This document shows, one piece after another, positions 1 to 62,759 of a stretch of DNA of 64,000 nt; the stretch's first letter is position 1, and each line of letters opens with the position of its first letter. The position numbers were made by a program, and so were the translations under genes. The notes beneath the pieces were generated by a model, which did no database searches, was not told the origin of the DNA, and saw only the letters and a program-made list of their open reading frames with translations. Origin of the DNA: Mobula hypostoma (lineage: Eukaryota); NCBI RefSeq assembly GCF_963921235.1, contig NC_086097.1, positions 44,518,001-44,582,000 on the forward strand, read 5' to 3'.

Positions 1-505
1 CTGCCATGATGAGGCTAAACTCAGGTTGGAGGAGCAACACCTCATATACCGTCTAGGTAGTCTCCAGCCCCTTGGTATGGACATAGAATTCTCCAACTTC
101 CAGTAATTCCCTCCCCCTCCCTTCCCCTATCCCTATGTCACTCTGCCCCCTCCCCCAGCTGCCTATCACCTCCCTCCTGGTTCCGCCTCTTTCTACTACC
201 CATTGTGTTTTTCCCTATTCTTTCTTCACCTTTCCTGCTTATCACCTCCCTGCTTCCCCTCCCCCACCCCTTTATGTTTCCCCTTACTGGTTTTTCACCT
301 GGAACCTACCAGCCTTCTCCTTCCCACCCTCCCCCCACCTTCTTTATAGGGCCTCTGCCCCTTCCCTCTTCAGTCCTGACGAAGGGTTCTGGCCCGAAAC
401 GTCGACTGATCTTTTCCACTGATGCTGCCCGACCTGCTGAGTTCCTCCACCGTGTTGTGAATGTTGCTTTGACCCCAGCATCTGCAGATTATTTTGTGTT
501 TACAT
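1..505 (+). mobile_element. Penelope-like element (PLE) 3' end plus terminal repeat, cut by the window edge
   Basis: The first ~105 nt encode HDEAKLRLEEQHLIYRLGSLQPLGMDIEFSNF, the same GIY-YIG C-terminus as ORFs 28592-28918 and 20550-21155. It is followed by a pyrimidine-rich tract and the terminal repeat with a hammerhead motif. Confidence 0.85.
370..409 (+). ncRNA. Minimal type-I hammerhead ribozyme motif in PLE terminal repeat
   Basis: TCAGTC-CTGACGA-A-GGG TTCTGG CCC-GAAA-C-GTC-GACTGA. It has the CUGANGA and GAAA cores, a GUC cleavage triplet, a perfect 6-bp stem I, stem II, and a palindromic ACGU in place of stem III. Confidence 0.8.
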
Positions 506-1309: not shown

Positions 1310-1405
1310 TGCACAAAATGCTGGAGGAACTCAGCAGGCCAGGAAGCATCTAAGAAAGAGAGTAAACAGTTGACGTTTCAGGCCGAGACCCTTCATCAGG
1401 ATGTG
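1310..1405 (-). repeat. Short PLE terminal-repeat fragment with hammerhead core
   Basis: Reverse strand reads CTGATGA AGGGTCTCGGCCT GAAACGTC, followed by the family tail (ctgctgagttcctccagcattttgtg). The stem I 5' arm is lost. Confidence 0.75.
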
Positions 1406-1539
1406 TTTGTGGTTATATGTTGTCCTAAATAACACATAAGAATTGTACATAATCTTTGCACAGTGCTAATTAATTTTCTTTTAGAAAAATGATGACAACT
1501 CTAGACTTTATTGATGGCTGCTCAGTAGATTGATGATAG

Positions 1540-5609: not shown

Positions 5610-6015
5610 CAAACGAAAGTGCTGGAGGAACAGATCTGATGAAGGGTCTCGGCCCGAAACTGACAGTTTATTCCCCTCCATAAAAGTTACTTGACTTGCT
5701 GAGTTCCTCCAGTATTTTGTGTGTTACTCCAAGATTTCCAGCATATGCAGAATCTCTTGTGTTTCTGATTGTTTTACTGTGAATACTTTTCAGGGAAACA
5801 GTTCCTTTTTTACAATTTGGAAGCCACGAACAATCTGCTGGAAGAAGCCAGCAGATCACGCAGCATTTGTGGGAGGAAAGGATTTGTGAACATTGAGTCG
5901 AAACCTTTCATCAGAACTTAGACCGAAAAACAATGATAATTTCTTTACCACAGATACTGCTTGACCAGATGAGTTCTTCCAGCAGATTGTTGTTCCAGAA
6001 TTCAGCGTCTGCAGA
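5610..6015. repeat. Two decayed PLE terminal-repeat-derived short elements
   Basis: Contain gctggaggaac / ctgatgaagggtctcggcccgaaac / gctgagttcctccag..ccagcatatgcaga motifs in partly inverted arrangement. Confidence 0.65.
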
Positions 6016-8873: not shown

Positions 8874-9674
8874 AAACATAGAAACATAGAAACATAGAAA
8901 ATAGGTGCAGGAGTAGGCCATTCGGCCCTTCGAGCCTGCACCGCCATTTATTATGATCATGGCTGATCATCCAACTCAGAACCCAGCCTTCCCTCCATAC
9001 CCCGTGACCCCTGTAGCCACAAGGGCCATATCTAACTTCCTTTTAAACATAGCTAATGAACTGGCCTCAACAGTTTGCTGTGGCAGAGAATTCCACAGAT
9101 TCACCACTCTCTGTGTGAAGAAGTTTTTCCTAACCTCGGTCCTAAAAGGCTTCCCCTCTATCCTCAAACTGTGACCCCTCGTTCTAGACCTCCCCAACAT
9201 TGGGAACAATCTTCCCGCATCTAGCCTGTCCAATCCCTTTAGGATCTTATACGTTTCAATCAGATCCCCCCTCAATCTTCTAAATTCCAACGAGTACAAG
9301 CCCAGTTCATCCAGTCTTTCTTCATATGAAAGACCTGCCATCCCAGGAATCAATCTGGTGAACCTTCTTTGTACTCCCTCTATGGCAAGGATGTCTTTCC
9401 TCAGATTAGGGGACCAAAACTGCACACAATACTCCAGGTGTGGTCTCACCAAGGCCTTGTACAACTGCAGTAGTACCTCCCTGCTCCTGTACTCGAATCC
9501 TCTCGCTATAAATGCCAGCATACCGTTCGCCTTTTTCACCGCCTGCTGTACCTGCATGCCCACTTTCAATGACTGGTGTATAATGACACCCAGGTCTCGT
9601 TGCACCTCCCCTTTTCCTAATCGGCCACCATTCAGATAATAATCTGTTTTCCTATTTTTGCCACCAAAGTGGAT
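8874..9674 (-). mobile_element. Young 5'-truncated CR1 LINE
   Basis: Uninterrupted 209-aa frame (LVRPHLEYCVQFWSP, RLRGDLIETYKI, FFTQRVVNLWNSLP) and a (TTTCTATG)n tail at 8874-8900. It differs at only 4 aa from the copy at 17632-19237. Confidence 0.95.
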
Positions 9675-10183
9675 TAATTTTATGTTTTGAACAACATAAT
9701 AAGCAGAACTTTTTAATTAGGTCTGGTATAAGCTTTTTGTGAAAATTTTTGCTGCAAGTAGCTTCGTTAGTTGCTCATTCCTCCGGTACATCCCTGCTCT
9801 TGGTTCACCCTTTCAGGTCCATTTGAACTGCACCCAACCGCATCTGCTCCCAGTTTGCCAGATCCACTCTGGATAATCCTCCTGTCCCTGTGCTTTTCCC
9901 TGTCTACAAGATGTTCAGAACCAACACCTTTTCCCTAGGGTGACGATGGCTAATAAAACAATGTGACTGGAGGAAAATATAGGGGAGTGTCAGAGGTAGT
10001 TTGTATTTTTTCTGTGTATTTTTTTTAAAAAACACAATGGTAGTAATAAAAGCAGATACATCAAGTACACTTCAGTGACTCTTAGCCACCCACGTGAAAG
10101 AAAAATGGAGGGTTAGATTGATCTTGGAGAAGGTTAAGGAGTTGGCACAACATTGCGGCTGAACAGCCTGTACAGTGCCATAC

Positions 10184-16835: not shown

Positions 16836-17631
16836 TATTTGAGTTTTCCAGCTAAATCCCTGAACACTGCTGTGGCATCATCCAGTACCTTTCTTAATTT
16901 CCTTTCAGTTGACTCTATTGCAGGGCATGTGGCATGCAAGCTGTGGGTGGATCTCCAATCAAGTTGTGGTTGTCTCAGCTAATCACATCCCCACAATGCT
17001 GGCCCTCCTGCTTTTGCCACATACAAGCCCAATGTGGCTTGTGGGCAGATTTATTTCAATGTTACGAATGTCATTCCCACGGGAGTTATCTTTTCTCCAG
17101 GACTGTATAAGTTCTTAGGTGGATATTTGTAGGCTTCAGTTCAGTATCTTTGAAATGCTATTTAAGCTAATTTTTTTGAATGACTGAAACAGCTGAGCTA
17201 CTGCCCAATGCCATTTTAAGTAATTTATCGTTCACTTCTGGTGTAAGCCATATTGCTCGTCTATTGTTAATTTCAAGGACCTCCAGTCCTGTATCACTCT
17301 CATCATTATCAGATTTTTCATCAGTAGCCTGCAGATTTGTGTTCTTTTTGAAACTGCAACTTGACTTTTTATCTTTTTCTCTTCGCTATGCAGACCATTT
17401 ATTTTTGTTTGCCTGACATGTAGGTGAATTTCTTTGTTACATTTTCTGCAAGTTTCACCATTACACCAGCATTGATCTGGGTTATGTGAGCCCCTGCCAC
17501 AACAGTAACATAATTTGTTTGGCCAGTCCAGTTTCTGTTTAGATGTTGCAGTTTTGTTCACACTCACTTTCATTCCTAACTATATCTCTGTCTACGGTTT
17601 CCATTGATACAGCAATTTCAACTGCTCTTTT

Positions 17632-19237
17632 AAAGGTAAATTGAAGGGATTGAAGGCAGATAAATCCCCAGGGCCAGATGGTCTGCATCCCAGAGTGCTT
17701 AAGGAAGTAGCCCAAGAAATAGTGGATGCATTAGTGATAATTTTTCAAAACTCGTTAGATTCTGGACTAGTTCCTGAGGATTGGAGGGTGGCTAATGTAA
17801 CCCCACTTTTTAAAAAAGGAGGGAGAGAGAAACCGGGGAATTATAGGCCGGTTAGCCTAACGTCGGTGGTGGGGAAACTGCTGGAGTCAGTTATCAAGGA
17901 TGTGATAACAGCACATTTGGAAAGCGGTGAAATGACTGGACAAAGTCAGCATGGATTTGTGAAAGGAAAATCATGTCTGACGAATCTCATAGAATTTTTT
18001 GAGGATGTAACTAGTAGAGTGGATAGGGGAGAACCAGTGGATGTGGTATATTTGGATTTTCAAAAGGCTTTTGACAAGGTCCCACACAGGAGATTAGTGT
18101 GCAAACTTAAAGCACACGGTATTGGGGGTAAGGTATTGGTGTGGGTGGAGAATTGGTTAGCAGACAGGAAGCAAAGAGTGGGAATAAACGGGACCTTTTC
18201 AGAATGGCAGGCGGTGACTAGTGGGGTACCGCAAGGCTCAGTGCTGGGACCCCAGTTGTTTACAATATATATTAATGACTTGGATGAGGGAATTAAATGC
18301 AGCATCTCCAAGTTTGCGGATGACACGAAGCTGGGTGGCAGTGTTAGCAGTGAGGAGGATGCTAAGAGGATGCAGGGTGACTTGGATAGGTTGGGTGAGT
18401 GGGCAAACTCATGGCAGATGCAATTTAATGTGGATAAATGTGAAGTTATCCACTTTGGTGGCAAAAATAGGAAAACAGATTATTATCTGAATGGTGGCCG
18501 ATTAGGAAAAGGGGAGGTGCAACGAGACCTGGGTGTCATTATACACCAGTCATTGAAAGTGGGCATGCAGGTACAGCAGGCGGTGAAAAAGGCAAATGGT
18601 ATGCTGGCATTTATAGCGAGAGGATTCGAGTACAGGAGCAGGGAGGTACTACTGCAGTTGTACAAGGCCTTGGTGAGACCACACCTGGAGTATTGTGTGC
18701 AGTTTTGGTCCCCTAATCTGAGGAAAGACATCTTTGCCATAGAGGGAGTACAAAGAAGGTTCACCAGATTGATTCCTGGGATGGCAGGTCTTTCATATGA
18801 AGAAAGACTGGATGAACTGGGCTTGTACTCGTTGGAATTTAGAAGATTGAGGGGGGATCTGATTGAAACGTATAAGATCCTAAAGGGATTGGACAGGCTA
18901 GATGCGGGAAGATTGTTCCCGATGTTGGGGAGGTCCAGAACGAGGGGTCACAGTTTGAGGATAGAGAGGAAGCCTTTTAGGACCGAGATTAGGAAAAACT
19001 TCTTCACACAGAGAGTGGTGAATCTGTGGAATTCTCTGCCACAGCAAACTGTTGAGGCCAGTTCATTAGCTATGTTTAAAAGGAAGTTAGATATGGCCCT
19101 TGTGGCTACAGGGGTCAGGGGGTATGGAGGGAAGGCTGGGTTCTGAGTTGGATGATCAGCCATGATCATAATAAATGGCGGTGCAGGCTCGAAGGGCCGA
19201 ATGGCCTACTCCTGCACCTATTTTCTATGTTTCTATG
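17632..19237 (+). mobile_element. Young 5'-truncated CR1 LINE with intact RT reading frame, inserted in Gypsy gag
   Basis: 501-codon open frame 17641-19146 (NYRPVSLTS, QHGF, DFQKAFDKVPH, GVPQGSVLGP, FADDTK) and a TTTCTATG tail. Gag sequence LTEAQL|FKRAVEIAVSMET continues across the insertion. Confidence 0.95.
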
Positions 19238-20263
19238 TAAGTTGTGCTTCAGTTAGGAGCTGGTTTTGAATGCTTTCTTGTAATATTTCACAAACTAAGC
19301 AATCACTCAGTGCATCATTAAGCCCATTACTGAACTAACAATCCTCAGACAACTTCTTCAAATCAGCCATGTACGCTGAAATGGGCTTCCTTTCCTTTTG
19401 ATTTGGCTTATGAAACTAATGCGTTCTGCAATCAAGAATGGTTTTGGTTCTAAATGTTCCTGCATTACGTTCACGATATCAGAAAAGCTCATTTTGGTTG
19501 GTTGAGTTGAATCAATCAAATTTCTAAGCAAACTGTATGCCTTTGAAACCCTATGCAGCTGCTTCTCAATGGCTATTTCATTTGGTTTAAAATACTGCTC
19601 AATTCCATCAATATACAATATCCAGTTATCCATTGTGCAATTGAACACATCAATCTTTCTGATGTAGCCAGCCATTTCTGCTTTTTTTTTACATTTTGCT
19701 TATTCTTACCCTGTACTTATTATCTTCACTGAATCTGTGAGTTTGTCTGTTTCATGCCCATTTTTTTAAACTTGACCGACTTTCTCCCCCTGTGAAAAAA
19801 ATTTGCTGCGTTGCTTTTTCTACTCAACCATTTCTCACTACGCTACTTATTTTTACTCAACCATTCCTCTCTATTCTTCCATGAGTAGGTAGTTGTCTCA
19901 GGGTTTGTTTAAATCTTCCTTGTCACCACTGTTATGCTATGGAACTCCGAAACACAAAACCAATTGAAAGAAAAAAAGTGTGTCCAGAATGAGAGTCTAA
20001 CTTCATTTTAACTTCAAGCAAAATGCACACTTATGATGTGGATGCATCATGATGTATACAATTCACTTATTTTTACATAGAACCCATAATGAATTATTTA
20101 AACAAAGAATGCTTAATGAAACAATATATTTACAATATTACAGAAATATTAAATACACAAGATGAATGTCCTCCAAAGCATCTGGACTTATTTCCTTTAC
20201 CTCCTGAGCAATCATGATTTTCTTCTCAGGAAACACAGAGGTGGCCCTGCTGATCTCTGTGGA

Positions 20264-21388
20264 GACATGAGGAAATTTACAGGTGCTGGAAATTCAAGCA
20301 ACACACACAAAATGCTGGTGGAATGCAGCAGGCCAGGCAGCATCTATAGAAAGAAGTACAGTGGACATTTTGGGCCAATACCCTTCGTCAGGACTAACTG
20401 AAAGAAGAGATAGTAAGAGATTTGAAAGTGGGAGGGGGAGGGGGAGGGGGAGATCCAAAATGATAGGAGAAGACAGGAGGGGGAGGGATGGAGCCAAGAG
20501 CTGGAAAGTTGATTGGCAAAAGGGATACAAGGCTGGAGAAGGGAGAGGATCATGGGACGGGAGGCCTAGGGAGAAAGAAAGCGGGAGGGGAGCACCAGAG
20601 GAAGATGGAGAGCAGGCAAGGAGTTATTGTGAGAGGAACAGAGGGAGAAAAAAAGGAAAAAATAATAAATAAATAAGGGATGGGGTAAGAAGGGAGGAGG
20701 GCATTAACAAAGATAGAGAAGTCAATGTTCATGCCATCAGGTTGGAGGCTACCCAGACAGAATATAAGGTGTTGTTCCTCCAACCTGAGTGTGGCTTCAT
20801 CTTTACAGTAGAGGAGGCCATGGATAGACATGTCAGAATGGGAATGGGACATGGAATTAAAATGTGTGGCCACTGGGAGATCCTGCTTTCTCTGGTGGAC
20901 AGAGTGTATGTGTTCAGCAAAACGATCTCCCAGTCTGCGTCGGGTCTCGCCAATATATAGAAGGCCACATCGGGAGCACCGGACACAGTATATTACACCA
21001 GCCAACTCACAGGTGAAGTGTCGCCTCACCTGAAAGGACTGTCTGGGGCCCTGAATGGTGGTGAGGGAGGAAGTGTAAGGGCATGTGTAGCACCTGTTCC
21101 GCTTACAAGGATAAGTGCCAGGAGGGAGATTGGTGGGAAGGAATGGGGGGGACAAATGGACAAGGGGGTCGCACAGGGAGCGATCCCTGTGGAAAGCAGG
21201 AGGCGGGGGGAAGATGTGCTTGGTGATGGGATTCTGTTGGAGGTGGCGGAAGTTACAGAGAATTATATGTTGGGCAAAATATATGTGTTGGACAAAACAT
21301 TATATGTTGGCCTGAAACGTTGACTGTACTTCTTCCTATAGATGCTGCCTGGCCTGCTGCGTTCCACCAGCACTTTGTGTGTATTGCT
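20264..21388 (-). mobile_element. Penelope-like element with GIY-YIG endonuclease and inverted terminal segment, 13-bp TSD
   Basis: ORF 20550-21155 reads VIYCVRCSRCGLLYIGETRRRLGDRFAEH..LRLEEQHLI..GMN. TSD TGATCTCTGTGGA lies at 20251-20263 and 21389-21401. An inverted terminal-repeat piece sits at ~21308-21388. Confidence 0.9.
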
Positions 21389-21434
21389 TGATCTCTGTGG
21401 ATTCCTACTTTCTCCATACCCACACTTAGAACGT

Positions 21435-21650
21435 CAAACACAAGAAAATTTGCAGATGCTGGAAATCCAAGCAACACACACAAAACGCTGGAGGAACTCA
21501 GCAGGCCAGGCAGCATCTCTGGGAAAGAGTACAGTCGACGTTCTGGACCAAGACCCTTCATCAGCAATACTGTTTACTCATCGACTGTTTACTCTTTTCC
21601 ACAGATGCTGTCTGATCAGCTGAGTTCCTCTAGCAGTTTGTGTGTGTTCC
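21435..21650. repeat. Short palindromic PLE terminal-repeat derivative
   Basis: Two terminal-repeat halves in inverted orientation with a degenerate hammerhead core (reverse CTGATGAAGGGTCTTGGTCCAGAACGTC). Confidence 0.7.
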
Positions 21651-21689
21651 TTAGCTATAGAACCTCTCGGATTTTCCTTCACCTTACTC

Positions 21690-22655
21690 ACAAAACACAA
21701 AAAATGTTGGAGGAACTCAGATGGTCAGGCGGCATCTATGAAAATGTATACACAGTTGATGTTTTGGGCTGAGACCCTTCAGGACTAGAAAAGAAGGGGG
21801 AATAAAAAGGTGGGGTTGGGGAAAGAGGACTAACTAGAAGGTAATATATGAAGCCAGGTAGGTGGGAAAGGTAAAGGACTGGAGAAAAAGGAAAACAAGG
21901 AATCTGATAGAAGAGGAGAGCGGACCGTAGGAGAAGGGGTACCAGGGGGTGGTGATAGGTAGGAGAGGAGAAGAGGTAAGAAGCCAGAGTAGGGAATTGA
22001 AGAAGAGGGAAGGGGAGGGTAAAAGTTTGCCGGAAGGAGAAATCAATGTTCATGCCATCAGGTTGGAGGCTACCTACAGTAGATAAAATATGTGGTGTTG
22101 CTCCTTCACCCTGGAAGTAGCCTCATCTTGGCAAACGAGGAGGCCATGGACTGACATGTCAGAACGGGAAAGGGGATAGGAATTAAAATGGTTGTCCACT
22201 GGGATATTCCACTTTTGGCGGATGGAGTGGAGGTGATCAGCAAAGCAGTCCCAGATACACTGGATGACCCCAACCTATTTGCAGGTGAAGTGTTGCCTTA
22301 CCTGGAAGGACTGTTTGAGACCCTGAATGGAGGTGAAGGAGGAGGTGTAGGGGCAGGTGTAGCACTTTGGCTGCTTGTAGGGATAAGTGCCAGGGGAGGA
22401 ATGAGAGGTGAGGGATGAATGGACAAGGGAATCACGGAGGAAGCAATCCCTGCAGAAAACGGAGAGTGGAAGGGAGGTAAAGATATGTTTGGTGGTAGGA
22501 TCCTGTTGAAGGTGACCAAAGTTGCGGAGAATAATGTGTGGCATATGGAGGATCATGGGGTGGTAGGTGTGGATAAGAGGAACTCTATCCCTGTTAAGGC
22601 GGTGGGAAGATGGGGTGAGTGTGGATCTCTGGGAAATGGAGGAGAGGCAGGTGAG
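21690..22655 (-). mobile_element. Older Penelope-like element fragment
   Basis: Reverse peptides HIILRNFGHLQQDPTTKHIF, PGTYPYKQPKCYTCPYT..QSFQVRQHFTC and MNIDFS. Confidence 0.8.
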
Positions 22656-22673
22656 TTGCTAAATCCTTCCCTA

Positions 22674-23620
22674 CACACACAAAATCCTGAAGGAACCCAG
22701 CAGGTCAGGCAGCATCTGTAGAGCCTAATAAACAGTTGATGTTTCAGGCTGAGACCCTTCAACAGAAGTGGAAAGAAAGGGGGAGGAAGCCAGAATAGGA
22801 AAGACTGGGGAGAGGAAGTAGTACAGGCTGGCAGACGATAGGTGAAGTCAGGTGAGGGGAAAAGTGGGTGGGTGGGAGATGGAGGAATGAAGTGAGAAGC
22901 TGGGAGGTGATAGGTGGAAAAGGCAAAGGGATGAAGAAGAAGGTCAGGATGAAGATCTGATAGGAGAGGAGAGTAGGCCATGGGAGAAAGGGAGGAGGGA
23001 GGTAGTGGGCAGTTGAATGGAAAAAGAGAGGAGGGAGAAATTACCGGAAGTTAGAGAATTTGATGTTCATACTGGCAGGTTCGATGTTCAAAGTAAATTT
23101 ATTATCAAAGTACACACACACACACAGATATATGTGTGCGTGTGTGTATATCACCATATACAACCCTGAGATTCATTTTCTAGTGAGCGTACACAGTAAA
23201 TCCAAGAAATGCAATAGAATTAATGAAAGATGACACCCAACAGGACAGACAAACAACCAATGTGCAAAAGACAACAAACTGCAAATACAAAAGTAAATAA
23301 ACAATAAATATCAAGAACATGAGAAGAAGAGTCCTTGAAAGTGAGTCCATAGGTTGTGGAAACAGTTTAGTGATGGGGTGAGTGAAGTTCAGTGAAGTTA
23401 TTCTATCTGGTTCAAGAGCCTGATGGTTGAGGGGTAATAACTGTTCCTAATCTGGTGGTGTGAGTCCTGAGGTTCCTGTACCTCCTTCCTGACGGCAGCA
23501 TGGTTAGGAGCCTTGATGATTGATGCTGCTTTCCGGTGACAGCACTCTGTCAGGTTGGAGGCTACCCATACAGAATAAGAGGTGTTGTTCCTCTAACCCG
23601 AGAGTGGCATCATCGCAGCT
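22674..23620 (-). mobile_element. PLE 3' fragment interrupted by a Rex1-like LINE 3' end (~23085-23550)
   Basis: Terminal repeat and purine tract, with the GIY-YIG C-terminus split. CAGGTT recurs at ~23076 and 23551 around an insert whose tail reads GTTCAAAGTAAATTTATTATCAAAGTAC. Confidence 0.7.
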
Positions 23621-24100
23621 GTAGAGACACCCTTTATTATGGCAGGAAATGAGCATGTTCAGCTCTTATATAAGGTGACTGCACATGTCTGTCCTACCTT
23701 AGAAGTATACTTCTCTGTGTAGTAGATTGGGTCAAACAGAGAATGGATTGGAAGTAATGTACGACTAAGTATCCGCACAGATGAAAGGACCTTTTGTGAA
23801 TTGATCTGCTCCATGTCTGCTTGCCGCATGATATACTCAGCTAACAAGCCATGGGACTAATAACCTGGACACACCTGCCACCTCTACAGATTAGTTCTTA
23901 GTTGTTTAGGCTGCTGAGGAGTAAGCAATTTCAGCTATTTTCTCAATTCTAATACTGCGACTGCAGGTTCTGGTATGTATGTTGCGTTGTTTTTGTATCG
24001 CGTGGCTGCTGAAGAAATGAGTGGGTGAATTTCGTTCTGGGTGGATCTGCTTTTGGGTTTGACGAACAGGTGGAAGCAATAAAGTAGGAAAAAGTGGATA

Positions 24101-24598
24101 GGCAAACACGAGGAAATCTGCAGATGCTGGAATTTCACACATAAAAGTTGCTGGTGAACGCAGCAGGCCAGGCAGCATCTCTAGGAAGAGTAGTCGACGT
24201 TTTGGGCCGAGACCCTTCGTCAGGACTAACTGAAGGAAGAGTTAGTAAGAGATTTGAAAGTTGGAGGGGGAGGGGGAGATCCAAAATGATAGGAGAAGAC
24301 AGGAGGGGGAGGGATGGAGCCAAGAGCTGGACAGGTGATTGGCAAAAGGGATATGAGAGGATCATGGGACAGGAGATCAATGGAGAAAGAAAAAGGGGAG
24401 GGGGGAAAACCCAGAGGATGGGCAAGGGGTATACTGAGAGGGACAGAGGGAGAAAAAGGAGAGAGCGAAAAAGAATGTGTGTTTATAAGTAAATAACAGA
24501 TGGGGTACAAGGGGGAGGTGGGGCCTTAGCGGAAGTTAGAGAAGTCGATGTTCATGCCGTCAGGTTGGAGGTTACCCAGACGGAATATAAGGTGTTGT
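24101..24598 (-). mobile_element. 5'-truncated PLE with 11-bp TSD
   Basis: TSD AAAAGTGGATA lies at 24090-24100 and 24599-24609. The terminal repeat has a hammerhead with GAAA mutated to AAAA (24191-24228). Confidence 0.85.
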
Positions 24599-25104
24599 AA
24601 AAGTGGATAAGGTTGGCATTGCTAAATGATGCAAATCATTCTGGGATTCTGGGCATTATCTTAGTAATGAAGCTCATCTACTGGCTCTATACCTAGAACC
24701 AAAGCCTCAGTCCAGTACAGGGCATTAATTGCTTTCGCCTTTGTACTGCTCAACATGGTATTGTACCAAGGTGCAACAGGTGATAGTAGCCACACCTGGC
24801 AGTTACTTGTGCCAAGCTGCAACAGGGAGAGTAGCCAATACTCTTCTTATAGAGGCTCACCTAGGATTCTTCCCCATTGATCAAGTGATTTGGGTTGAGA
24901 AAATACTGGACCTTGCATGCATTGCCGGTTTTCTTGTCATTCAGATGGTCACAGACTGTACCCATATTATCCTGGTTAAAAGGCAGATATCTTGTTTAAG
25001 CATAAACAGGAAAATACAGGTAGTAAATAATGAGAACGTCTATGCTCAGTTTCTCTGTTGTTTTTTCCTCTCCACACCTTGCTGTTTCTTTGGCAATTTT
25101 GTCT

Positions 25105-27660: not shown

Positions 27661-28160
27661 TTTGCTGAGGATGTGAGAAGAGATAAGATCAGGAACATCA
27701 AAGAAGTTAATAGTGTTAATTTAAAACCAAATAGGACACATGCTGAAGAAAACAGTACTGAGAATTTGAGGAAAAGGGCAGATTGAAGTAATATAGGGAG
27801 GAAACTCAGATCCATATTATCATGAGAACTAACAATGATAATTACAGGTGGGATGGACAAAATGAAAAAGAAATGGGGTTAATATGAGAAATGGGAAGTA
27901 AACTGCATTGTGGGGTCTCAAAAGAGCAGGGAAGGGGAAGCAAAGGTAAATAGTTATCTTCCTTAAAAACAAACCATTTTGACACACAGAAAGTGTAATT
28001 TTAATACTATAACTGTGTCGCTATTATTGGCATATGAACTTTATTAATGTCAGCTGAAAAAATAGTCGTCACCAAAAGCCCGAAATGTCTAGACTTGTGT
28101 CAAACTCTATGTTTCGGTTCTGTCATATATTATTCTACAACAGTACATTGGCAATATGAT

Positions 28161-29261
28161 CGCAAACAACAGGAATTCTGCAGATGCTGGAAATTCAAGC
28201 AACATACATCAAAGTTGCTGGTGAACGCAGCAGGCCAAGCAGCATCTATAGGAAGAGGCGCAGTCGACGTTTCAGGCCGAGACCCTTCGTCAGGACTAAC
28301 TGAAGGAAGAGTGAGTAAGGGATTTGAAAGCTGGAGGGGGAGGGGGAGATCCAAAATGATAGGAGAAGACAGGAGGGGGAGGGATAGAGCCGAGAGCTGG
28401 ACAGGTGATAGGCAAAAGGGGATACGAGAGGATAATGGGACAGGAGGTCCGGGAAGAAAGACGGGGGGGGGGTGACCCAGAGGATGGGCAAGAGGTATAT
28501 TCAGAGGGACAGAGGGAGAAAAAGGAGAGTGAGAGAAAGAATGTGTGCATAAAAATGAGTAACAGATGGGGTACGAGGGGGAGGTGGGGCCTTAGCGGAA
28601 GTTAGAGAAGTCGATGTTCATGCCATCAGGTTGGAGGCTACCCAGACGGAATATAAGGTGTTGTTCCTCCAACCTGAGTGTGGCTTCATCTTTACAGTAG
28701 AGGAGGCCGTGGATAGACATATCAGAATGGGAATGGGATGTGGAATTAAAATGTGTGGCCACTGGGAGATCCTGCTTTCTCTGGCGGACAGAGCGTAGAT
28801 GTTCAGCAAAGCGGTCTCCCAGTCTGCGTCGGGTCTCACCAATATATAAAAGGCCACATCGGGAGCACCGGACGCAGTATATCACCCCAGTCGACTCACA
28901 GGTGAAGTGATGCCTCACCTGGAAGGACTGTTTGGGGCCCTGAACGGTGGTAAGGGAGGAAGTGTAAGGGCATGTGTAGCACTTGTTCCGCTAACACGGA
29001 TAAGTGCCAGGAGGGAGATCAGTAGGGAGGGATGGGGGGGACGAATGGACGAGGGAGTTGTGTAGGGAGCGATCCCTGCGGAATGCAGAGAGAGGGGGGG
29101 AGGGAACGATGTGCTTAGTGGTGGGATCCCGTTGGAGGTGGCGGAAGTTACGGAGAATAATATGTTGGACCTGGAGGCTGGTGGGGTGGTAGGTGAGGAC
29201 CAGGGGAACCCTATTCCTAGTGGGGTGGCGGGAGGATGGAGTGAGAGCAGATGTACGTGAA
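28161..29261 (-). mobile_element. Young Penelope-like element, intact GIY-YIG domain, 14-bp TSD
   Basis: ORF 28592-28918 reads VIYCVRCSRCGLLYIGETRRRLGDRFAEHLRS..GMNIDFSNFR*, with upstream RVPLVLTYHP..PPLSAFRRD. TSD ATTGGCAATATGAT lies at 28147-28160 and 29262-29275. Confidence 0.92.
28261..28297 (-). ncRNA. Minimal hammerhead ribozyme motif (core intact)
   Basis: Reverse strand reads AGTC-CTGACGA-A-GGGTCTCGGCCT-GAAA-CGTC-GACTG. Confidence 0.75.
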
Positions 29262-29515
29262 ATTGGCAATATGATGCTGGCATTCATAACGTAAATGTGA
29301 AAAATTCTTATTAGGCTCATCTTGAAACTTAATATTACATTTTACCATCTGTTTCTATTGATTAAACAGTAGTAATTTATTTTACTTATATGCCAGTAAT
29401 CTAATTATAGCAAGGTTAAACCGGTTTCCAGATTAAAGATTAGTGTAGTGTCTTGAAATTATTCCATGTAGTCTAATACTTTACACAGGTCATTTTATTT
29501 ATTTGTTTTGTTCAG

Positions 29516-30366: not shown

Positions 30367-30562
30367 GCTTCATATCAGACAGCTGTCCCATCAGCCCCAA
30401 AATTCTGGAATTCCCTCCATAATTCTCTCTGTCTCAACCACCATTAAACCATTCCTTAAAATTTGTCACTTCAACCAAGCTCTTGGATTTCTCACCTAAT
30501 GTTCTGTATATTGGTCAGTCCAGAGTCAGGATGAAAATGCTTCAAAGAAGCATCTTGGGATA

Positions 30563-31824
30563 TTGCATTTTGCCTATCACCACAATAGGTCAACAGCAGA
30601 TGCAATCTTAATGGCTCTTCACACAGCTTTAGACCACCTGGACAACACAAACACCTATGCCAGGATGTTGTTCATTGACTATAGCTCAGCATTTAATACC
30701 ATCATTCCCACAATCCTGATTGAGAAGTTGCAGAACCTGGGCCTCTGTTCCTCCCTCTACAATTGGATCCTAGACTTCCTAACTGGAAAACCACAATCGG
30801 TGCGGATTGGTGATGACATCTCCTCCTTGCTGACGATCAATACTGGTGCACATCATGAGTGTGTGCTTAGCCCACTGCTCTACTCTCCCTATACCCATGA
30901 CTGTGTGGCTAGGCATAGGTCAAATGCCATCTATAAATTTGCTGACAATACAATCATTGTTGGTAGAATCTCAGGTGGTGACGAGAGGGTGTACAGGAGT
31001 GAGATATGCCAACTAGTGGAGTGGTGTCGCAGCAACAACTTGGCAAAGACAAAAGAATTGATTGTGGACTTCAGGAAGGGTAAGACGAAGGAACACATAC
31101 CAATCCTCATGGAGGGATCAGAAGTGGAGAAAGTGAGCAGCTTCAAGATCCTGGGTGTCAAGATCTTTGAGGATTTAACCTGGTCTGAACATATTGATGT
31201 AGTTATAAAAAAGGCAAGGCAGTGGCTATACCTTATTAGGAGTTTGAAGAGAATTGGCATGTAAACAAATACACTCTAAAACATCTATAATTGTACCGTG
31301 GAGAGCATTCTGACAGGCTGCATCACTATCTGGTATGGAGGGGCTACTGCACAGGACCAAAAGAAGCTGCAGAAGTTTGTAAATCTAATCAGCTCCATCT
31401 TGGGCACTAGTCTACAAAGTACCCAGGAGAACTTCAGGGAGCAGTGTCTCAGAAAGGAAGCGTCCATTATTAAGGACCTCCAGCACCCAGGGCATGCCCT
31501 TTTCTCACTCTTACCATCAGGTAGGAGGTACAGAAGCCTGAAGGCACACACTCAGCGATTCAGGAACAGCTTCTTCCCCTCTGCCATCCAATTCCTAAGC
31601 GGACATTGAATCTTTGGACACTACCTCACTTTTTTTAATATACAGTATTTCTGTTTTTGCATTTTTTTAATCTATTCAATATACATAATTGATTTACTCA
31701 TTTATTTATTATTATTATCATTTTTTTCTCTGCTAGATTATATATTGCATTGAACCGCTGCTAAGTTTACAAATTTCACGTCACATGCTGGTGATAATAA
31801 ATCTGATTCTGATTCTGATTCTGA
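30563..31824 (+). mobile_element. Rex1/Babar-type LINE, 5'-truncated
   Basis: [76 protein letters not shown]; (TTCTGA)n tail at 31802-31824. Confidence 0.92.
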
Positions 31825-37289: not shown

Positions 37290-38160
37290 CACAAACTCAG
37301 CAGGCCAGGCAGCGTCCGTGGAAAAGAGTACAGTCGACGTTTGAGGCCAAGACCTTCATCGGGACTGGAGAAAAAAAGATGAGGAGATAAGGTGAGAGAG
37401 GGAAAGGTGGGTGGGAAATGGTGAAGGGTGGCATTACCGGAAGTTTGAGAAATCGATGTTCATGCCATCAGGTTGGAGGTTACCCCGATGGAATACAAGG
37501 TGCTGCTGCTCCAACTCTGTGTGGCCTCATCACAACAGTAGAGGTTTAGCACTGCCATGTCAAAATGGGAATGGGAAGTGGAATTAAAATGGGTGGACAA
37601 TGGGAGATCCCACTTCTGGCAGACAGAGCATGGCTCCTCAGCGAGGTGAGTTCATAATCTACATTGGCTTTCGCTGATATACAGGAGGCCACACCGGGTG
37701 CACCAAACACAGTATATGACCCCAACACTCACAGATGAAGTGTCGCCTCACCTGGAAGGACTGTTTTGGGCCCTGAATGGTAGTGAGGGAGGAGGTGTAG
37801 GGGCAGGTGTAGCACTTGTTCTGCTTGCAAGGGTAAGTGTCAGGAGGGAGATCAGTGGGGAGGGGCAAACGTACAAGGGAGTTGAGGAGGGAGCAGAAAG
37901 CAGAAAGTGGGGTGAGGGAATGATGTGATGGGCGATGGGATCCCGATGGAGATGGCAGAAGTTACGGAGAATTATGTGCTAGATGCGGAGGCTGCTAGGG
38001 TGGTGGGTGAGGACAAGAGGAACCCTATCCCTGGTGGGCTGGCGGGAGGACGGGAAGTCGACTGTACTCTTTTCCATAGATGCTGCCTGGCCTGCTGAGT
38101 TCCTCCAGCACTTTGTGTGTGTTGCTTTGGATTTCCAGCATCTGCAGATTTTCTCTAGTG
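37290..38160 (-). mobile_element. Older PLE with inverted terminal segment
   Basis: Reverse peptide PPDTYPCKQNKCYTCPYTSSLTTIQGPKQSFQVRRHF. Terminal repeat at 37290-37370 and an inverted copy at 38055-38160. Confidence 0.8.
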
Positions 38161-38507
38161 TCTCATTTATTTATTGATCAGTGCTTCACCCTATAGCATG
38201 CTAGACCTCACCATTTTCTATACCACAGCTTAAAAAAATAAGGTAATTTAAAGCTAGCTTGTTTGTTTTCTTTTTTTCCCTGTTCTGATAAGGGTTTTCA
38301 CCCTGAAATATTAACTCTATTTCTCTTATCACAGATGCTGAGAGGTTCCAAAATGTTTTGCTTTTATTTCATACCAAAGGCATCTGCAATTTCCTTTCAT
38401 TGTTTTCTTTTACTGTCCATACTGGAGAGTTCAAAGGGATGGAAAATACTAGCAAAGCAAGCGTATTGTCTTGCTGCCGTGCACGGTGCTGGATAGAACA
38501 TATTACG

Positions 38508-40324: not shown

Positions 40325-40840
40325 GGTTATTTCTGCAGCAGTTTGAACGGGGCACAACTGCACAAGCGCGTGGTGGTTGGCCAGTGAGAACAGCGGGAAG
40401 AGTTTAAAAGCGAGCAGAGTTGAAAAGGCAATGGTTATCTCTTCAGCGGTTGAATGGGGCACGACTGCGCAACCATGTGGAGGTCAGCCAGTGAGAACAG
40501 CGGGAAGAGTTTAAAAGCGAGCAGAGTTGAAAAGGCAATGGTTATCTCTTCAGCAGTTTGAACGGGGCACGACTGCGCAACCGTGTGGAGGTCGGCCAGT
40601 GAGAACAGCGGGAAGAGTTTAAAAGTGAGCAGAGTTGAAAAGGTGATGGTTATCTCTTCAGCGGTTTGAACGGGGCACGACTGCGCAAGCATGTGGAGGT
40701 CGGCCAGTGAGAACAGCGGGAAGAGTTTAAAAGCAAGCAGAGTTGAAAAGGTGATGGTTATCTCTTCAGTGGTTTGAACGGGGCACGACTGCGCAACCGT
40801 GTGGAGGTCGGCCAGTGAGCACAGTGGGAAAAGTTTAAAA
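40325..40840 (+). repeat. Tandem array of ~4.8 x 108-bp monomers at the CR1 5' end
   Basis: GGTTAT unit starts at 40325, 40433, 40540, 40648 and 40756 (periods 108/107/108/108). Confidence 0.95.
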
Positions 40841-48070: not shown

Positions 48071-50727
48071 CTTATGCCCAGGAGGAATTTGAAAACAAGA
48101 CTGAGGAATTGACAATTAGACCCGATTACATAGAGGAATTGTGGTCAGGAGCTCAACCCAGAATCCAACACAGGAACAAAGTAGCAGAGAGTAACCAAGC
48201 ATAATAGTATATTTTAAAAAATATATCGTATGGGTTCCTTAAAATTAATTGGAAGATAAATGCTTTTTAAAGAGTGATTTATGAAGCAATTAAAAACATT
48301 GTACTAAACTAAAAATGGTTTTCTTTAATAGTTTAATTTCTATTAATATTCATTTTGCTGAAACATAGAATTTTCATGCTCAAGAATGAAGCTGTTATCC
48401 CATTGGTAGTTTGAAAGCAGTTGCTATTATATTCATCAAAGGATCATAGTGTCAAGTGGGCACACCATGAAACAAACATTTTCATTTTACTTATGTATTA
48501 ATGCTAGTCAAATGTAATTAGCTGTAATCACGTGTACACTATTTCCATTTATTAGAATTTGGAGTTTACTTAGTTCTTATGTCAATGGATAAATCTCCAA
48601 AGGGATGGAATGATATATATGTATTTTTCTTGCCTGTTGGTCAAATGATGCAGACACCTCATTATTAAATGTTAAAAATAACTAGCTAAATATATAGAAG
48701 ACGGTATGGACATATGACACGCCTAAACTGTTTACAGCTGTGCATCTAAACTGTTCAACAGTTAAGTGGAACGTAATTGATGTTATACAAATGTTAATTG
48801 TTGCTCAAGTAATTATATAATACTTTAAGCCATAGGAATCCAGGATTCCTTAGATGTTTTCTTAATTATGCATATATTTTTGACTTTGTGAGGGACCACT
48901 TCATATTATATTTTCTAATGCAGTACTAACAGAAATGATCAAATAATTGTGGTAAAACACTAATATAAAAAATTATAATGTTTTGAGATACTGTATTCTG
49001 TAACAGCTTTGATGTTTGAAGAAATAAGTAATGTTCACAGGTTTTTCACAATACGTACATGAATTGCATGCAGTGTGCCAAATTTCCATTGGAAGAATGC
49101 AGTATTGTGTTTGTGGAAAGGACACCACCTTGTTAACATAAAGAGCACAAAAAAATTCCCCTTACTTAGCCTCTCAATTCAAGTAAACAACCAAACTTCA
49201 AAACTAGCTAGGTAGTTTAAAGAGAAAGTCGCTGTTTTCAATCTGTTTTGAATAATTACACTACAAACAAGAATCAGCAAATTATGGAGTAATCGGAACG
49301 AAACTGAGGTACTTCAAAATGAATCAGTTCAGGTGCACATCTGGCCCATGATATCTTCTGTCCTGGCCTGCCTCAGGGCTAATGACTTGGTAGCAAGTTC
49401 TGGGTAACTAGGAGGTCTGATTTGTCAGCTTGGAATCTTTCCTTGCAGATGCCAAACTATTAACATTCTAAACTAACCACAGGAAAAGCAACAGATATAA
49501 AATGCTGGAGGAACTCAGCTAGTCAGGTAAAAGGCAATTGTTATTTTCTGGGAAAAATAACGCTAGAAATACACAGGAGTTAAGCAGCATCTATGGGAAG
49601 TAAACATAGTTTACTTTTTAGGTGGATGACCTTTCATCAGAACCAGGTAAAGTCAAAAGTTAACCTGGATAATGTTACAGAGAGGTGGTGTTTGGGGCGG
49701 GGGCGGGTAGCATTGGAAAGAACAAAGGGGACCTTTGTGGCAGAATGGAGATTAAGAGAAAACTGGATCGTGCAGTTGTACCATTGCTAGCCATCAGACG
49801 TTGGTGAATGCTTGTGAATTAGAAGCAATCCATCTGGTGGAGATGTACGTATACGGAAGTGAATATGGTTAGACCAGCAAAAAATAAGCAATGCTGGTAC
49901 TGTGATATGCTGAACACAATAGTTACTGGACATCCGTAATACATTAGGACACTGGAAAAGGCCAGCAGATCAGGCGGGGTCTGTGGATCAAGAAACAATT
50001 AACTAATTTCATAGATTGATGAATATACATCAGAACTGGTCAGTTGACTTATAACTACTGATTTGTCAGTTCTGTTTGGAAGCACTGAGACTCATCCAGA
50101 TCACTGAGCTTTCAGCACCTAAATGGTCTTGTAACCAACTGATATGTGTAGCCTGTTTCTCATCTCAAATAATCTCCTGCTATGGGCAAAGGTAGATTCA
50201 TGACAATAAACTCCATTTCCTTGATTAAAGAATGATAAACCCTACAATATTTCAAAGTTACTTTTAGAGTGGAATGGATAACAGTCGTGAGATAAACTCC
50301 AGTCATTTACTATGATGTTAGTTGGAGCACTGGAAAATTGTATGTATGATGAGAATTGAAGTAAGGGGAATTAAATTGCAGGCAGGCTTGCTAGAACTGA
50401 TGGGAGTAGTTTAAACTAGTATGGCAGGGGGATGGGAACCAGTATGATAGAGCTGAGGATGAGCCAGCAGGTTTACAAGTAGATAATGTAATATGTAATA
50501 TGAATGTAAGGAAGGACAAGCCAATGATTGGCTACAACTGCAGACAGAGCAAAGAGTTAAATTGTACCACAGAGGCAAAATTCAAAAGAGCGAAGGTAGG
50601 TGAACACGCAGCACATGTGATCAATATGACGTCGTGGCTGAAAGAGGGTCATAGTTGGGAGTTTAACATCAAAGGATATACCTTGTATCGAAAGGACAGG
50701 CAAGAAGACGTAGATGGTGGTGTGGCT

Positions 50728-57495: not shown

Positions 57496-58183
57496 TGGGC
57501 TGTGCGACTGTGTATTTATTTAATAGCTTTAGTTTTTGCATATTATTTTTTGTAGCAACTATCAAAATTATTTAAATGACTTTTAAAAACAATGTGAAAG
57601 CAGTGAGAAGCCAAGCCCTTTCTTGCTCACTGGGATGAGTCTTGTACCAATGCGTACCCACCTCAGTAACAGAACAAAATCAGCAGAAGCTGCCACTGCC
57701 TTTCCTATTTCATTCATTTGCAGTCATGTCAAACCATACACATTTGTGGAGAAGAAACTGAATTAAAAATTAAAACAGTCAAATCCTCAACTGAACTTTT
57801 TCCTGTTATCTGCATCTGAAAATGCACCATGTACTGAGTTACAGGAAGATAATTTTTTTGGTTTCTACTTGTACCCTTAGTTATCTGAAGCATACAGATA
57901 TTGAAAGAGTAAAGATTCAGATTTGGTCTGGGGCATTTCATAAATGAATAGCTGTGAATGCTCACTTAATTTTTAATGTTTAAAACATAAACTTTTTATG
58001 TGAGAAAAAGGTAATATACTCATGACATCCATGAACTATAAGCCATACATAATGATAATGGTGATCGCTTATATTAGTTACTTTGGCTCAATTGTTTTAA
58101 AAAGCAGGGAGGGTACCTGATGTCGAAGCCATTGTTTTATTGTCTCAAAACAGCACCAGTAAAAATAGATTGGTTAGTAAATC

Positions 58184-59880
58184 AACACACATCAAAGTTG
58201 CTGGTGAACGCAGCAGGCCAGGCAGCATCTCTAGGAAGAGGTATAGTCGACCTTTCGGGCCGAGACCTTTCGTCAGGACTAACTGAAAGAAGAAATAGTA
58301 AGAGATTTGAAAGTGGGAGGGGGAGGGGGAGATCAGAAATGATAGGAGAAGACAGGAGGGGGAGGGATGGAGCCAAGAGCTGGACAGGTGATTGGCAAAA
58401 GGGATATGAGAGGATCATGAGACAGAAGGCCCGGGGAGAAAGAAAAGGGGGAGGGGGGGAAGCCCAGAGGATGGGCAAGTAGTGAGAGGGACAGAGAGAA
58501 AAAAAAATATCTATCTATCTATCTATATATATAATAACGGATGGGGTACGAGGGGGAGGTGGGGCATTAACGGAAGTTAGAGAAGTCAATGTTCATGCCA
58601 TCAGGTTGGAGGCTACCCAGACAGAATATAAGGTGTTGTTCCTCCAACATGAGTGTGGCTTCATCTTGACAGTAGAAGAGGCCGTGGATAGACGTATCAG
58701 AATGGGAATGGGATGTGGACTCAGCATGAGGCTTTTCATTCCAGGAGGAGGGAGATGTCCTCCTTTTTTAAAGAAAGGGGTTTCCCTTCCTCCACCATCA
58801 ACTCTGCTCTCAAACGCATCTCCCCCATTTCATGTACATCTGCTCTCACTCCATCCTCCCGTCACCCCTGGTCCTCACCTACCACCCCACCAGCCTCTGG
58901 GTCCAATATATTATTCTCTGTAACTTCCGCCACCTCCAACGGGATCCCACCACTAAGCACATCTTTCCCTCCCCCCCTCTGCTTTCTGCAGGGATTGCTC
59001 CCTACGCGACTCCCTTGTCCATTCGTTCCCTCTATCCCTCCCCACTGATCTCCCTCCTGGCACTTATCCTTGTAAGCGGAACAAGTGCTACAAATGCCCT
59101 TACACTTCCTCCCTCACCACCATTCAGGGCCCCAGACAGTCCTTCCAGGTGAGGCGACACTTCACCTGTGAGTCGGCTGGGGTGATATACTGCGTCCGAT
59201 GCTCCTGATGTGGCCTTCTATATATTGGCGAGACCTGACGCAGACTGGGAGGTCATTTTGCTGAACACCTACGCTCTGTCTGCCAGAGAAAGCAAGATCT
59301 CCCAGTGGCCACACATTTTAATTCCACATCCCATTCCCATTCTGATATGTCTATCCACGGCCTCCTCTACAGCTGAAACAACACTCAGGTTGGAGGAACA
59401 CCACCTTATATTCCATCTGGGTAGCCTCCAACCTGATGGTATGAACATTGACTTCTCAAACTTCTGCTAATGCCCCACCTCCCCCTCGTACCCCATCCGT
59501 TATTTATTTATATACACACATTCTTTCTCTCTCTCTCCTTTTTCTCCCTCTGTCCCCCTTGCCCATCCTCTGGGCTTCCCCCCCTCCCCCTTTTCCTTCT
59601 CCCTGGGCCTCCTGTCCCATGATCCTCTCATATCCCTTTTGCCAATCACCTGTCCAGCTCTTGGCTCCATCCCTCCCCCTCCTGTCTCTCCTATCATTTT
59701 GGATCTCCCCCCCCCCTTTCAAATCTCTTACTATCTCTTCCTTCAGTTAGTCCTGACGAAGGGTCTCGGCTCGAAACGTCGACTGTACCTCTTCCTAGAG
59801 ATGCTGCCTGGCCTGCTGCGTTCACCAACAACTTTGATGTGTATTGCTTGAATTTCAAGCATCTGCAGAATTCCTCGTGT
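58184..59880 (+). mobile_element. Penelope-like element with long inverted terminal repeat and 14-bp TSD
   Basis: The left arm 58184-58719 is the reverse complement of the right end (~59320-59850). The body encodes MSSFFKERGFP, LVLTYHP and GIY-YIG remnants. TSD TTGGTTAGTAAATC lies at 58170-58183 and 59881-59894. Confidence 0.93.
59749..59784 (+). ncRNA. Minimal hammerhead ribozyme motif (core intact)
   Basis: AGTC-CTGACGA-A-GGGTCTCGGCTC-GAAA-CGTC-GACT. Confidence 0.75.
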
Positions 59881-60267
59881 TTGGTTAGTAAATCCATATT
59901 TTAATATGAAAATTGGTCAGATAGAGTGGTCTCCAATCAGAAATGCAATGAATTGAAAAATATCTATCACTGACCATGTGTCATGTGAACTGGTGTTTCA
60001 AAATAAAGGAACGGCCAGGGTCTATTGCAGAACTACAAATGTCATCAGCCCGCAAAAATTGTTGCTTTAACTATAGGAATCATATGCATTGGTCATGTTT
60101 CATTAGCTTAAGTAGAAAGCCACTTCCCTCTTTCATTGATTTCAAAAAGGAAGCCTGCATGTTGAGCAATCTTCTTCTTGAAGAGAATGACAGTGGAACC
60201 CATGTTTATTAGTATGTTTATTTCACTTTAATATGTAGGAATTGAAAACCATCATTCCTAGGGATTG

Positions 60268-60453
60268 GCTGCATCTATGGCGAAGAGCACAGTCGATGTT
60301 TTGGACCGAGACCCTTCGTCATTCCAGCCCTGATGAAGGGTTTCGGTCCGAAATGTCGACTGTACTGGCCTGCTGAGTTCCTCCAGCATTGTGTGTGTGT
60401 GTGTGTGTGTGTTGCTTGGATTTCCAGCATCTGCCGATTTTCTCTTGTTTGTG
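60268..60453. mobile_element. ~190-bp non-autonomous PLE-terminus element with back-to-back hammerhead motifs and TSD
   Basis: Reverse partial hammerhead at 60290-60321 and forward CTGATGA..GAAATGTC at 60325-60362. TSD ATTCCTAGG(G/A)ATTG lies at 60254-60267 and 60454-60467. Confidence 0.8.
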
Positions 60454-61274: not shown

Positions 61275-62460
61275 CAAAAGACTGCAGCTGCTGGAATCAG
61301 GAGCAAAAACAAATTGTTGGCATCTGTGGAGGCAAATCATTGATCAATGTTTTGAGTCAAGAGCCTGATTCATAACTGAGAAGATAGTGAGTGTATAGAA
61401 TTCAGAGGGAATGAGTAAGATAGAGGCTGGTAGGGAAAAGCTGGTGAATCAGGCAAGGAGGGTGAGTGTGATGATAGGCAGATGGAGGAGGAGAAGAAAT
61501 TGAGACAGTTTGTAGATGCTAAGTGGAACCAAATACTAAAAGATGTAGGCAAAAAGTTGGGGTATAGGAGGGGAGGGGAGGGAGAGGGGGGGAGGAAGAG
61601 GGGGGAGAGGGGGAGGGGAGGGAGGAGGGAGAGGGGGAAAGGGGAGGGAAAGGGGGAGAGGCGGAGAGGGAGAAAAGAGAGATCCTACATGGACTGGTGA
61701 GGGTGGGAAAGGAAAACAGAGGCATTGTTTAACTGAAATAAAATATTCAATAGTCATACCACTTGGTTGAAGACTATCACACGCACATGAATCTCTGAGT
61801 CAGCTGGAAGGTTTGTTTAAGTCCTTCCTTACACATACACCTCCTCCAACATGGTCCATTGCATTCAGTGCCCACAATTCAGCCCCTCTACATTGGCAAG
61901 GCGGAAAGCAGACTAAGCAATTGTTTTTCATGTGTACCTGTGCTCTCTCCACAATGGCCACCTTGAGTTCTTGAGTGCAGGTCCTTTCTTCTCTCCCTCC
62001 CAATCCCACACCAACTTGTCTGTCCTTGGACATCTCCACTGCTTTGGGTGAGGCTAAGCGGAGGACCAGTCTCTCATATTTTGCGCCAGTCCAAGGGTAT
62101 GAACGCTGAGTTTTTCGATTTCAAGTAACACACTTCCTGTGTTCCTTTTTTACTCCCATTAGTCCACCCAGAGTCTTTCTCCCCTTGTTCACCTCCATCC
62201 CTCCCCCACCCTTGTTACTAAGATTCATCATCCTTCCTTTATCTGATACCATCTCAATACTTCCCCTCCCCAGCCTTGACCTTGGGTCACTGTTTCCTTC
62301 TTACTCACTGGTTCCACTCATTTCTGATTTATCCCTCCCCTTGGCTTCTAATATACTGGTTACTTTGCCTCTACACTTCCAGTCCTGGTACAGAGTCTCT
62401 ACCCAAAACATTGACCTTGTGTCCACAGAAACTGCTTAGCCTGTTGAGTTCCTCCAAGTT
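61275..62460. mobile_element. Highly decayed PLE with inverted arms
   Basis: Terminal-repeat remnants at both ends, an expanded purine tract at 61560-61680, and GIY-YIG remnants (gcccctctacattggcaaggcggaa) on + from ~61800. Confidence 0.55.
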
Positions 62461-62759
62461 TTTTTTTAACTCCTCTAAATGAAACTTCTGGTCATTATCA
62501 CATTGTTGGAGTTTATTGTAGGGACTAAATCCCTGCAGCACACAGCAGTGACTATACTCCAGTGCCTATGATTAATTTGGCATTTCTTAGGTTGTGAAAA
62601 GCTTTGTATGACCCAAGTCTTTCTTTTTTTATGTAAGAAAAATCATTTGTTTGCTAAATACAGAACTTCCCCATGAGGGGATGAGTTATGAAATTATAAC
62701 CAGTATTATTAGGAAGGAATAAATATGATACCTATGTAACCCAAACCACAACAGGCACT

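Follow-up and report, generated by a model that had tools for sequence, protein, structure and literature searches.

Minimal hammerhead ribozymes have been described in the pseudo-LTRs of metazoan Penelope-like elements (PLEs) by Cervera and De la Pena (2014, PMC4209133), and the accessible text of that report describes the schistosome forms as inactive in vitro as monomers and of low activity in dimer and trimer constructs. In Poseidon PAc, a PLE of Anolis carolinensis (Frangieh et al. 2024, PMC11167929), the ribozyme is reported to require protein and to be dispensable for insertion in vitro, and the available sections of the paper describe no RNA-seq read ends at the ribozyme cut site. Dimer cleavage is also reported in the title of a paper by Lunse, Weinberg and Breaker (RNA Biol 14:1499). 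The role of PLE hammerheads is considered still open in the available part of a survey by Craig et al. (2021, PMC8557442).

We analyzed a 64,000-nucleotide stretch of the Mobula hypostoma genome, referred to here as the window. With high probability, it contains minimal type-I hammerheads at the 3' end of 5'-truncated Neptune-type PLEs, ribozymes that likely served the master elements and that are now likely decaying neutrally and mostly silent.

The motif is clearly represented at positions 370-409 of the plus strand, where the stems, core and cleavage triplet proposed in the initial annotation can all be read: stem I (TCAGTC), CTGACGA, an extra A, stem II (GGGT-TCTG-GCCC), GAAA-C-GTC and the second strand of stem I (GACTGA). 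Stem I comprises 6 bp, stem II comprises 4 bp with a 4-nt loop, and C17 falls at 403, which places the predicted cut at 403/404; the other cut position proposed, 59780/59781, is likewise correct. The minimal type-I order of CUGANGA, GAAA and UH is complete in copies 376(+), 59753(+) and 28293(-), and stem III is reduced to the palindrome ACGU (15.2-16.2), as had been proposed.

A search of the window with a profile built from nine copies identified 32 end-pieces at E<=1, compared with one (E 0.78) in the reversed window. Both core halves are present in 18 of these, which were aligned. A further 13 start within the motif or downstream of it, and one has decayed too far for alignment. The aligned set includes all 15 sites listed originally, seven as intact or near-intact and eight as decayed, each a remnant of a single minimal type-I hammerhead motif, together with three further copies, 5914(-), 49640(-) and 60324(-). 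Motif traces at about 4653(-) and 61400(-) are scarcely recognizable. The aligned copies, six on the plus strand and twelve on the minus strand, are the following:

370..409, plus strand: copy 376(+), intact at each of the 16 key positions, stem I of 6 bp, cut predicted at 403/404
59748..59785, plus strand: copy 59753(+), intact at each of the 16 key positions, stem II with an extra G-U, cut predicted at 59780/59781
28261..28298, minus strand: copy 28293(-), core intact, G10.1-U11.1 (CpG-type change)
24191..24228, minus strand: copy 24223(-), G12A, substrate half (ACGUC and stem I 3' strand) intact
58244..58281, minus strand: motif with G10.1A (A10.1-C11.1 mismatch) and C15.2G, which breaks the palindrome
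1312..1409, minus strand: mini-insertion of 98 nt that starts 2 nt before C3, without the stem I 5' strand
60292..60324, minus strand, and 60325..60362, plus strand: head-to-head remnant pair, predicted 32-bp hairpin of -54.4 kcal/mol; minus-strand member newly listed here
20359..20396, minus strand: decayed motif, G12A and C15.2U
21532..21564, minus strand: decayed motif and mini-copy start, G12A and A13G
21752..21787, minus strand: decayed motif, 3-nt core deletion and G12A; approximate ends
22733..22770, minus strand: decayed motif, A6U and G16.2A; approximate ends
37336..37372, minus strand: decayed motif, U4C and G12C; approximate ends
5636..5668, plus strand: decayed motif and mini-copy start, cleavage triplet gone
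5882..5917, minus strand: heavily decayed motif of an older subfamily, newly listed here; approximate ends
38279..38317, plus strand: heavily decayed older-subfamily motif, found by the profile at E 0.08; approximate ends
49607..49645, minus strand: older-subfamily motif in which 10.1-11.1 is A-U and 2.1-1.1 is U-A, with a decayed core, newly listed here; approximate ends
62380..62415, plus strand: heavily decayed motif; approximate ends

Two of the three copies originally called intact, at 370 and 59749, are fully so; the third, at 28261, has G10.1-U11.1 in place of G-C, a change shown by ~45% of the depth in genomic contigs. The four near-intact calls are genuine motif remnants, but each carries a defect: G12A at 24191, the mismatch and broken palindrome at 58244, a missing half of stem I at 1367 and an inverted repeat at 60325. 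The mini-insertion at 1312-1409 is flanked by 13-nt direct repeats (1299-1311 and 1410-1422), which represent a target duplication.

Several searches gauged how specific the motif is. A core-only regular expression matched four times in the window against a mean of 0.025 across 200 Markov windows, and a paired-stem descriptor matched three times, at 376(+), 59753(+) and 28293(-), against zero in 100 Markov null windows; CTGANGA by itself is weakly enriched (59 versus 45.5). An Rfam search of the window returned 14 matches, hammerhead not among them; Rfam hammerhead models probably expect a real stem III. Metagenome scans yielded 0 loci and later 17, which matched a 20-base pattern only, none with a PLE end. 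Across the 18 copies, pairing is found in 93% of stem II cells and 73% of stem I cells, compared with 19-43% in slid controls. The extra base between 9 and 10.1 is A in 17 copies, and pair 10.1-11.1 is G-C in ten, G-U in four and A-U in one. Changes on both sides occur at three of nine pairs (2.1-1.1, 2.5-1.5 and 10.1-11.1), with covariation that is weak and not clearly beyond shuffles (8 two-sided cells, 17/500 shuffles; covariation score, 53/500).

The element that carries the motif is represented in the window by these features:

28592..28990, minus strand: ORF remnant with Cys linker (CxxxxCxxC) and GIY-YIG endonuclease (Pfam PF01541, E 3.5e-5, above cut-off)
28160..29299, minus strand: 5'-truncated PLE copy, ~1.1 kb
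58143..58723, minus strand, and 58713..59888, plus strand: head-to-head PLE pair, 92% alike
20260..24807, minus strand: cluster of four 5'-truncated PLE copies with inverted end-pieces (21307-21392 and 21581-21663, plus strand)
1..505, plus strand: PLE 3' end of a second subfamily (71-75% to the others), running off the window start
37294..38185, minus strand: 5'-truncated PLE copy
61826..62512, plus strand: old 5'-truncated PLE copy
59786..59885, plus strand: ~100-nt tail between the predicted cut and the end of the element, with depth single-copy after 59899 and loose ends at 59882-59884

The linker in 28592-28990(-) reads CKRNKCYTC and fits CX2-5CxxC. The best relative of this endonuclease is a Mobula hypostoma protein (95% identical), followed by one from Hypanus sabinus, and the protein relatives, the 95% one included, carry the RT motif YIDD upstream in addition to the Cys linker and GIY-YIG, whereas the window copies end short of the RT core. 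Judged by these sequence features, the element is an endonuclease-bearing (EN+) PLE with the Neptune/Nematis linker, and its putative assignment to the Neptune clade draws on the linker and the vertebrate host only. All window copies are 5'-truncated, at most ~1.2 kb long, and PLE pieces make up ~16% of the sequence; no tandem or full-length PLE copy is present in the 64 kb. Inverted partners occur at 58143-59888, 21307 and 60292. A young family is made up of five copies that are 87-93% alike, and copy 376(+) belongs to another subfamily (71-75%).

In all ten GIY-YIG-bearing copies, the motif lies downstream of the endonuclease on its coding strand. Its placement ~100 nt upstream of the element 3' end is as first described; for instance, the element of copy 59753(+) ends near 59885, ~105 nt past the predicted cut. 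The broader proposal that every terminal repeat contains the motif holds for these ten copies and fails for the 13 end-pieces that begin inside or after it, eight of them at E<=0.01.

Other observations concern the tails, the protein and the surrounding sequence. In the tail of 376(+) (421-483), a long stem can form between GAUGCUG and CAGCAUC, two young-copy tails (28160-28245(-) among the sites) fold differently, and the family has two alternative 3' ends ~35-40 nt apart. Ray and skate gene models with host-gene names (P0004, P0005, P0009 and P0024-P0026) contain the endonuclease sequence of this PLE and may represent exonised pieces or annotation artefacts. Repeats mask ~52% of the window, including LINE remnants at 17608-19146(+), 8976-9716(-), 35435-36769(-), 42012-44782(+) and 30500-31264(+), one of which has a 512-aa open RT frame (PF00078). 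A tandem repeat with a ~108-nt unit at 40435-40851(-) shows CTGAAGA at 40440, 40547, 40655 and 40763.

All 16 key positions are kept in only two of the 18 copies, 376(+) and 59753(+), which lie 59.4 kb apart; key changes are present in the other 16. CpG-type transitions account for 27 of the 52 key-position changes, and key CpG columns are changed in 35 of 108 cells versus 13 of 176 for non-CpG columns, in a window whose CpG o/e is 0.29. G12A, a change at the hammerhead general base (PMC6155905), is found in seven copies. The initial annotation had named a lack of excess core conservation among young copies as counting against it, and the five available point in that refuting direction: key positions are changed in 6/80 cells versus 168/2178 in the flanks (p=1.0). 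At non-CpG motif sites, these copies show 5/140 changes versus 139/2042 in the flanks, about half the rate (p=0.16), and mild constraint on the motif after insertion may be compatible with them.

Between subfamilies, the comparison is different. Copies from other subfamilies (n=4) match the young-family majority at 68-89% in the motif versus 50-63% in the upstream UTR, an apparent conservation inflated by the choice of copies with a motif-containing profile. In two or more subfamilies, the majority sequence retains every catalytic position; the tail after the motif is also well kept. A core-versus-spacer comparison was set aside as biased by copy choice and indels, and a contig variant table of which 40 of 86 rows were listed did not enter the conservation estimates. 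Since the motif is best kept between subfamilies and decays like its flanks in young copies, selection likely acts on master elements only. Selection in master lineages followed by neutral, CpG-driven decay after insertion is the simplest reading.

A plausible sequence of events can be outlined by analogy. Reverse transcription would start in the tail, as inferred from the anole Poseidon element; insertions longer than ~135 nt would then nearly all include the motif, which would by itself account for 18 remnants in the window. Where a master transcript carries the element in tandem, pairing between its two motifs would run through the ACGU palindrome and a swapped stem I, and cutting would follow after GUC, probably with help from the element's protein. 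A lone copy is predicted to fold with G5-G8 paired to C15.2-C17, closing the core, and every copy that spans the cut site derives from uncut or re-joined RNA.

The edges of the motif carry signals of their own. Among 15 short PLE pieces, six begin within -8..+1 of C3 (p 0.011-0.033 under a uniform null), with starts judged by eye and three older copies and four weak matches excluded. Sites at or near the motif 5' edge include 1312-1409(-), 5632, 21564, 60324/60325 and 4653. The two edges of the motif, 59749 and 59786, are where loose ends accumulate in genomic contigs from two organisms; their heterogeneity is similar at 59749 (agreement 0.37-0.45) and at the true 3' end (0.44-0.48), and other subfamilies contribute to the ends at 59749 too. 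Cleavage might also have left a fossil in the form of run-off at the cut site, but this is not supported: three pieces start 3-5 nt upstream of it and none exactly there. DNA runs of both organisms also contain a junction that leads from 59787 back to 59749 across a single G (depth 53 and 46), which may reflect head-to-tail duplication of the motif alone at some genomic site. A pyrimidine run with YAG lies over the stem I 5' strand at 360-375(+), 37367-37385(-), 62372-62384(+) and 59738-59752(+), and a second YAG-ATG lies ~20 nt past the cut; both are candidate splice acceptors.

These edges bear on an alternative that we consider unlikely, namely that the block is retained chiefly because the element uses it as a cis signal (an RNA 5' end, a protein-binding site or a splice acceptor), with cleavage incidental or lost in the lineage. 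It would account for the starts near C3 and their absence at the cut, for a tail that is likewise well kept, and for the YAG that overlaps the stem I 5' strand in several subfamilies, an overlap also described for the intron end of Drosophila virilis Penelope in the accessible text of PMC4209133. However, the splice-acceptor look is unspecific because the whole UTR is pyrimidine-rich, and the start cluster was read by eye at p values tied to a uniform null. A cis signal also fits poorly with the majority presence of every catalytic position in two or more subfamilies and with the two-sided changes at 2.1-1.1, 2.5-1.5 and 10.1-11.1.

Abundance invites a more far-reaching speculation. Summed motif depth is ~4x10^5 times that of the unique flank in one DNA run, a ratio that is not a copy number but is of the order expected from five young copies in 64 kb; motif abundance may be very high, roughly 10^5. 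Rays might on this account be among the most hammerhead-dense genomes (order 10^5), with an expressed PLE protein chaperoning intact copies to cut host pre-mRNAs and dead neighbours serving as substrate halves, a scenario to which we give little credence. If it were true, mini-copy starts at the motif 5' edge would mark the RNA 5' end of the element, and mini-copies would be run-off products of tail-primed reverse transcription.

The initial annotation had proposed that dispersed same-strand copies could pair within any transcript spanning the region and cut it. While its identification of the motif, with strand and position, agrees with what has already been published for PLEs, the cutting of spanning transcripts is poorly supported, and we regard it as very improbable. 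In its favour, the window holds remnants on both strands in number, and the enzyme half of one copy could use the substrate half of another, so that a G12A copy would still be cuttable. The pair best suited to this is 28293(-) as enzyme and 24223(-) as substrate, 4,070 nt apart, in a cross-dimer that can be drawn sterically with 5-bp stems I and the 4-bp palindrome. Dimers and trimers of the schistosome ribozyme are, in addition, weakly active in vitro according to the available text of PMC4209133.

Against this proposal, the two intact copies are far apart and closer partners are defective or sequestered, with key changes in 16 of the 18 copies. The five minus-strand copies within 3.9 kb (20391-24223) each have a defective core, the plus-strand partner 577 nt past 59753(+) is sequestered in the predicted 32-bp hairpin with its inverted twin, and the smallest same-strand spacings, 219 and 577 nt, involve separate insertions with defective partners. 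The monomer fold is predicted to be core-shut in all three descriptor-passing copies, with G5-A6-C7-G8 paired to C15.2-G16.2-U16.1-C17. Under a folding model without core tertiary contacts or Mg2+, active dimers in the three most relevant pairs are predicted to be 9-18 kcal/mol worse than two monomers: -15.9 versus -24.6 kcal/mol for 28293(-)/24223(-), -4.4 versus -22.7 kcal/mol for 59753/60330, and -23.7 versus -32.8 kcal/mol for the best homodimer.

None of 134 ORFs of at least 55 aa outside repeats matched Pfam, a weak host-exon test that would miss short exons. A search of sequencing runs listed no RNA run as a carrier, a result without bearing on expression. Contigs from two runs guessed to be RNA contain the PLE family, a point in favour of the proposal, with strand and RNA ends not readable from contigs. 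Contigs from guessed-RNA runs span the cut site in three listed records, which may count against it. The ratio of guessed-RNA to DNA depth rises gradually through the motif and its tail, without a break at the cut; as contigs cannot show ends, it was given no weight. Cutting of host RNA by the window copies is predicted to be unlikely. Finally, a chance match within a repeat is hardly credible, as the lack of an Rfam hammerhead and the weak folding z-scores of two of the three descriptor-passing copies (-0.55 and -1.15) are outweighed by three descriptor matches against none in 100 nulls and by a position and architecture that fit published PLE hammerheads.

Ribozymes that served master elements and now decay in truncated copies remain our preferred reading. 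Many dated copies in one genome allow cheap tests of post-insertion selection, intron strand bias and truncation points, and the importance of the family would be greater if host RNAs proved to be cut.

To place the ray family among known systems, we compared it with four published groups, each through the accessible part of its source. The minimal hammerheads of PMC4209133 likewise have no helix III beyond the palindrome, share with the ray motif the extra base after A9, G10.1-C11.1 and a 4-6 bp stem I, and also occur mostly as single dispersed copies from truncated PLEs, plus opposite-strand pairs; they differ in stem II, 7-8 bp in schistosome forms versus 4 bp in the ray. Abundance is apparently higher in the ray (three descriptor matches in the 64-kb window and a depth ratio of roughly 4x10^5) than in coelacanth (~4,000 motifs) or Xenopus (~9,000), which were counted by another method. 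In the two of three supplement files of that report that were searched, shark, skate or Callorhinchus names do not appear. Our literature searches found no paper on elasmobranch PLE hammerheads, although some supplements may list sharks or rays, and a 2026 preprint on non-LTR retrozymes (bioRxiv 10.64898/2026.07.22.740005) reports hammerheads also in one chondrichthyan genome. These retrozymes likewise carry PLE-derived type-I hammerheads, but form tandem arrays, whereas the ray copies are dispersed or inverted.

As for the carrier, Neptune EN+ PLEs (PMC8557442) resemble the ray element in the C-terminal GIY-YIG and CX2-5CxxC linker, the 5' truncation, the inverted 5' partner copy and the optional tail of 30-40 nt; the same source gives Nematis PLEs the same linker type. 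Poseidon PAc (PMC11167929) similarly has its hammerhead ~85-100 nt upstream of genomic 3' ends, and two alternative 3' ends as in the ray family. It belongs, however, to the Penelope/Poseidon clade, is without the Cys linker that the ray element has, and starts its ORF at stem II. The motif class itself is already published in the accessible text of PMC4209133 and is here extended to a batoid Neptune-type family.
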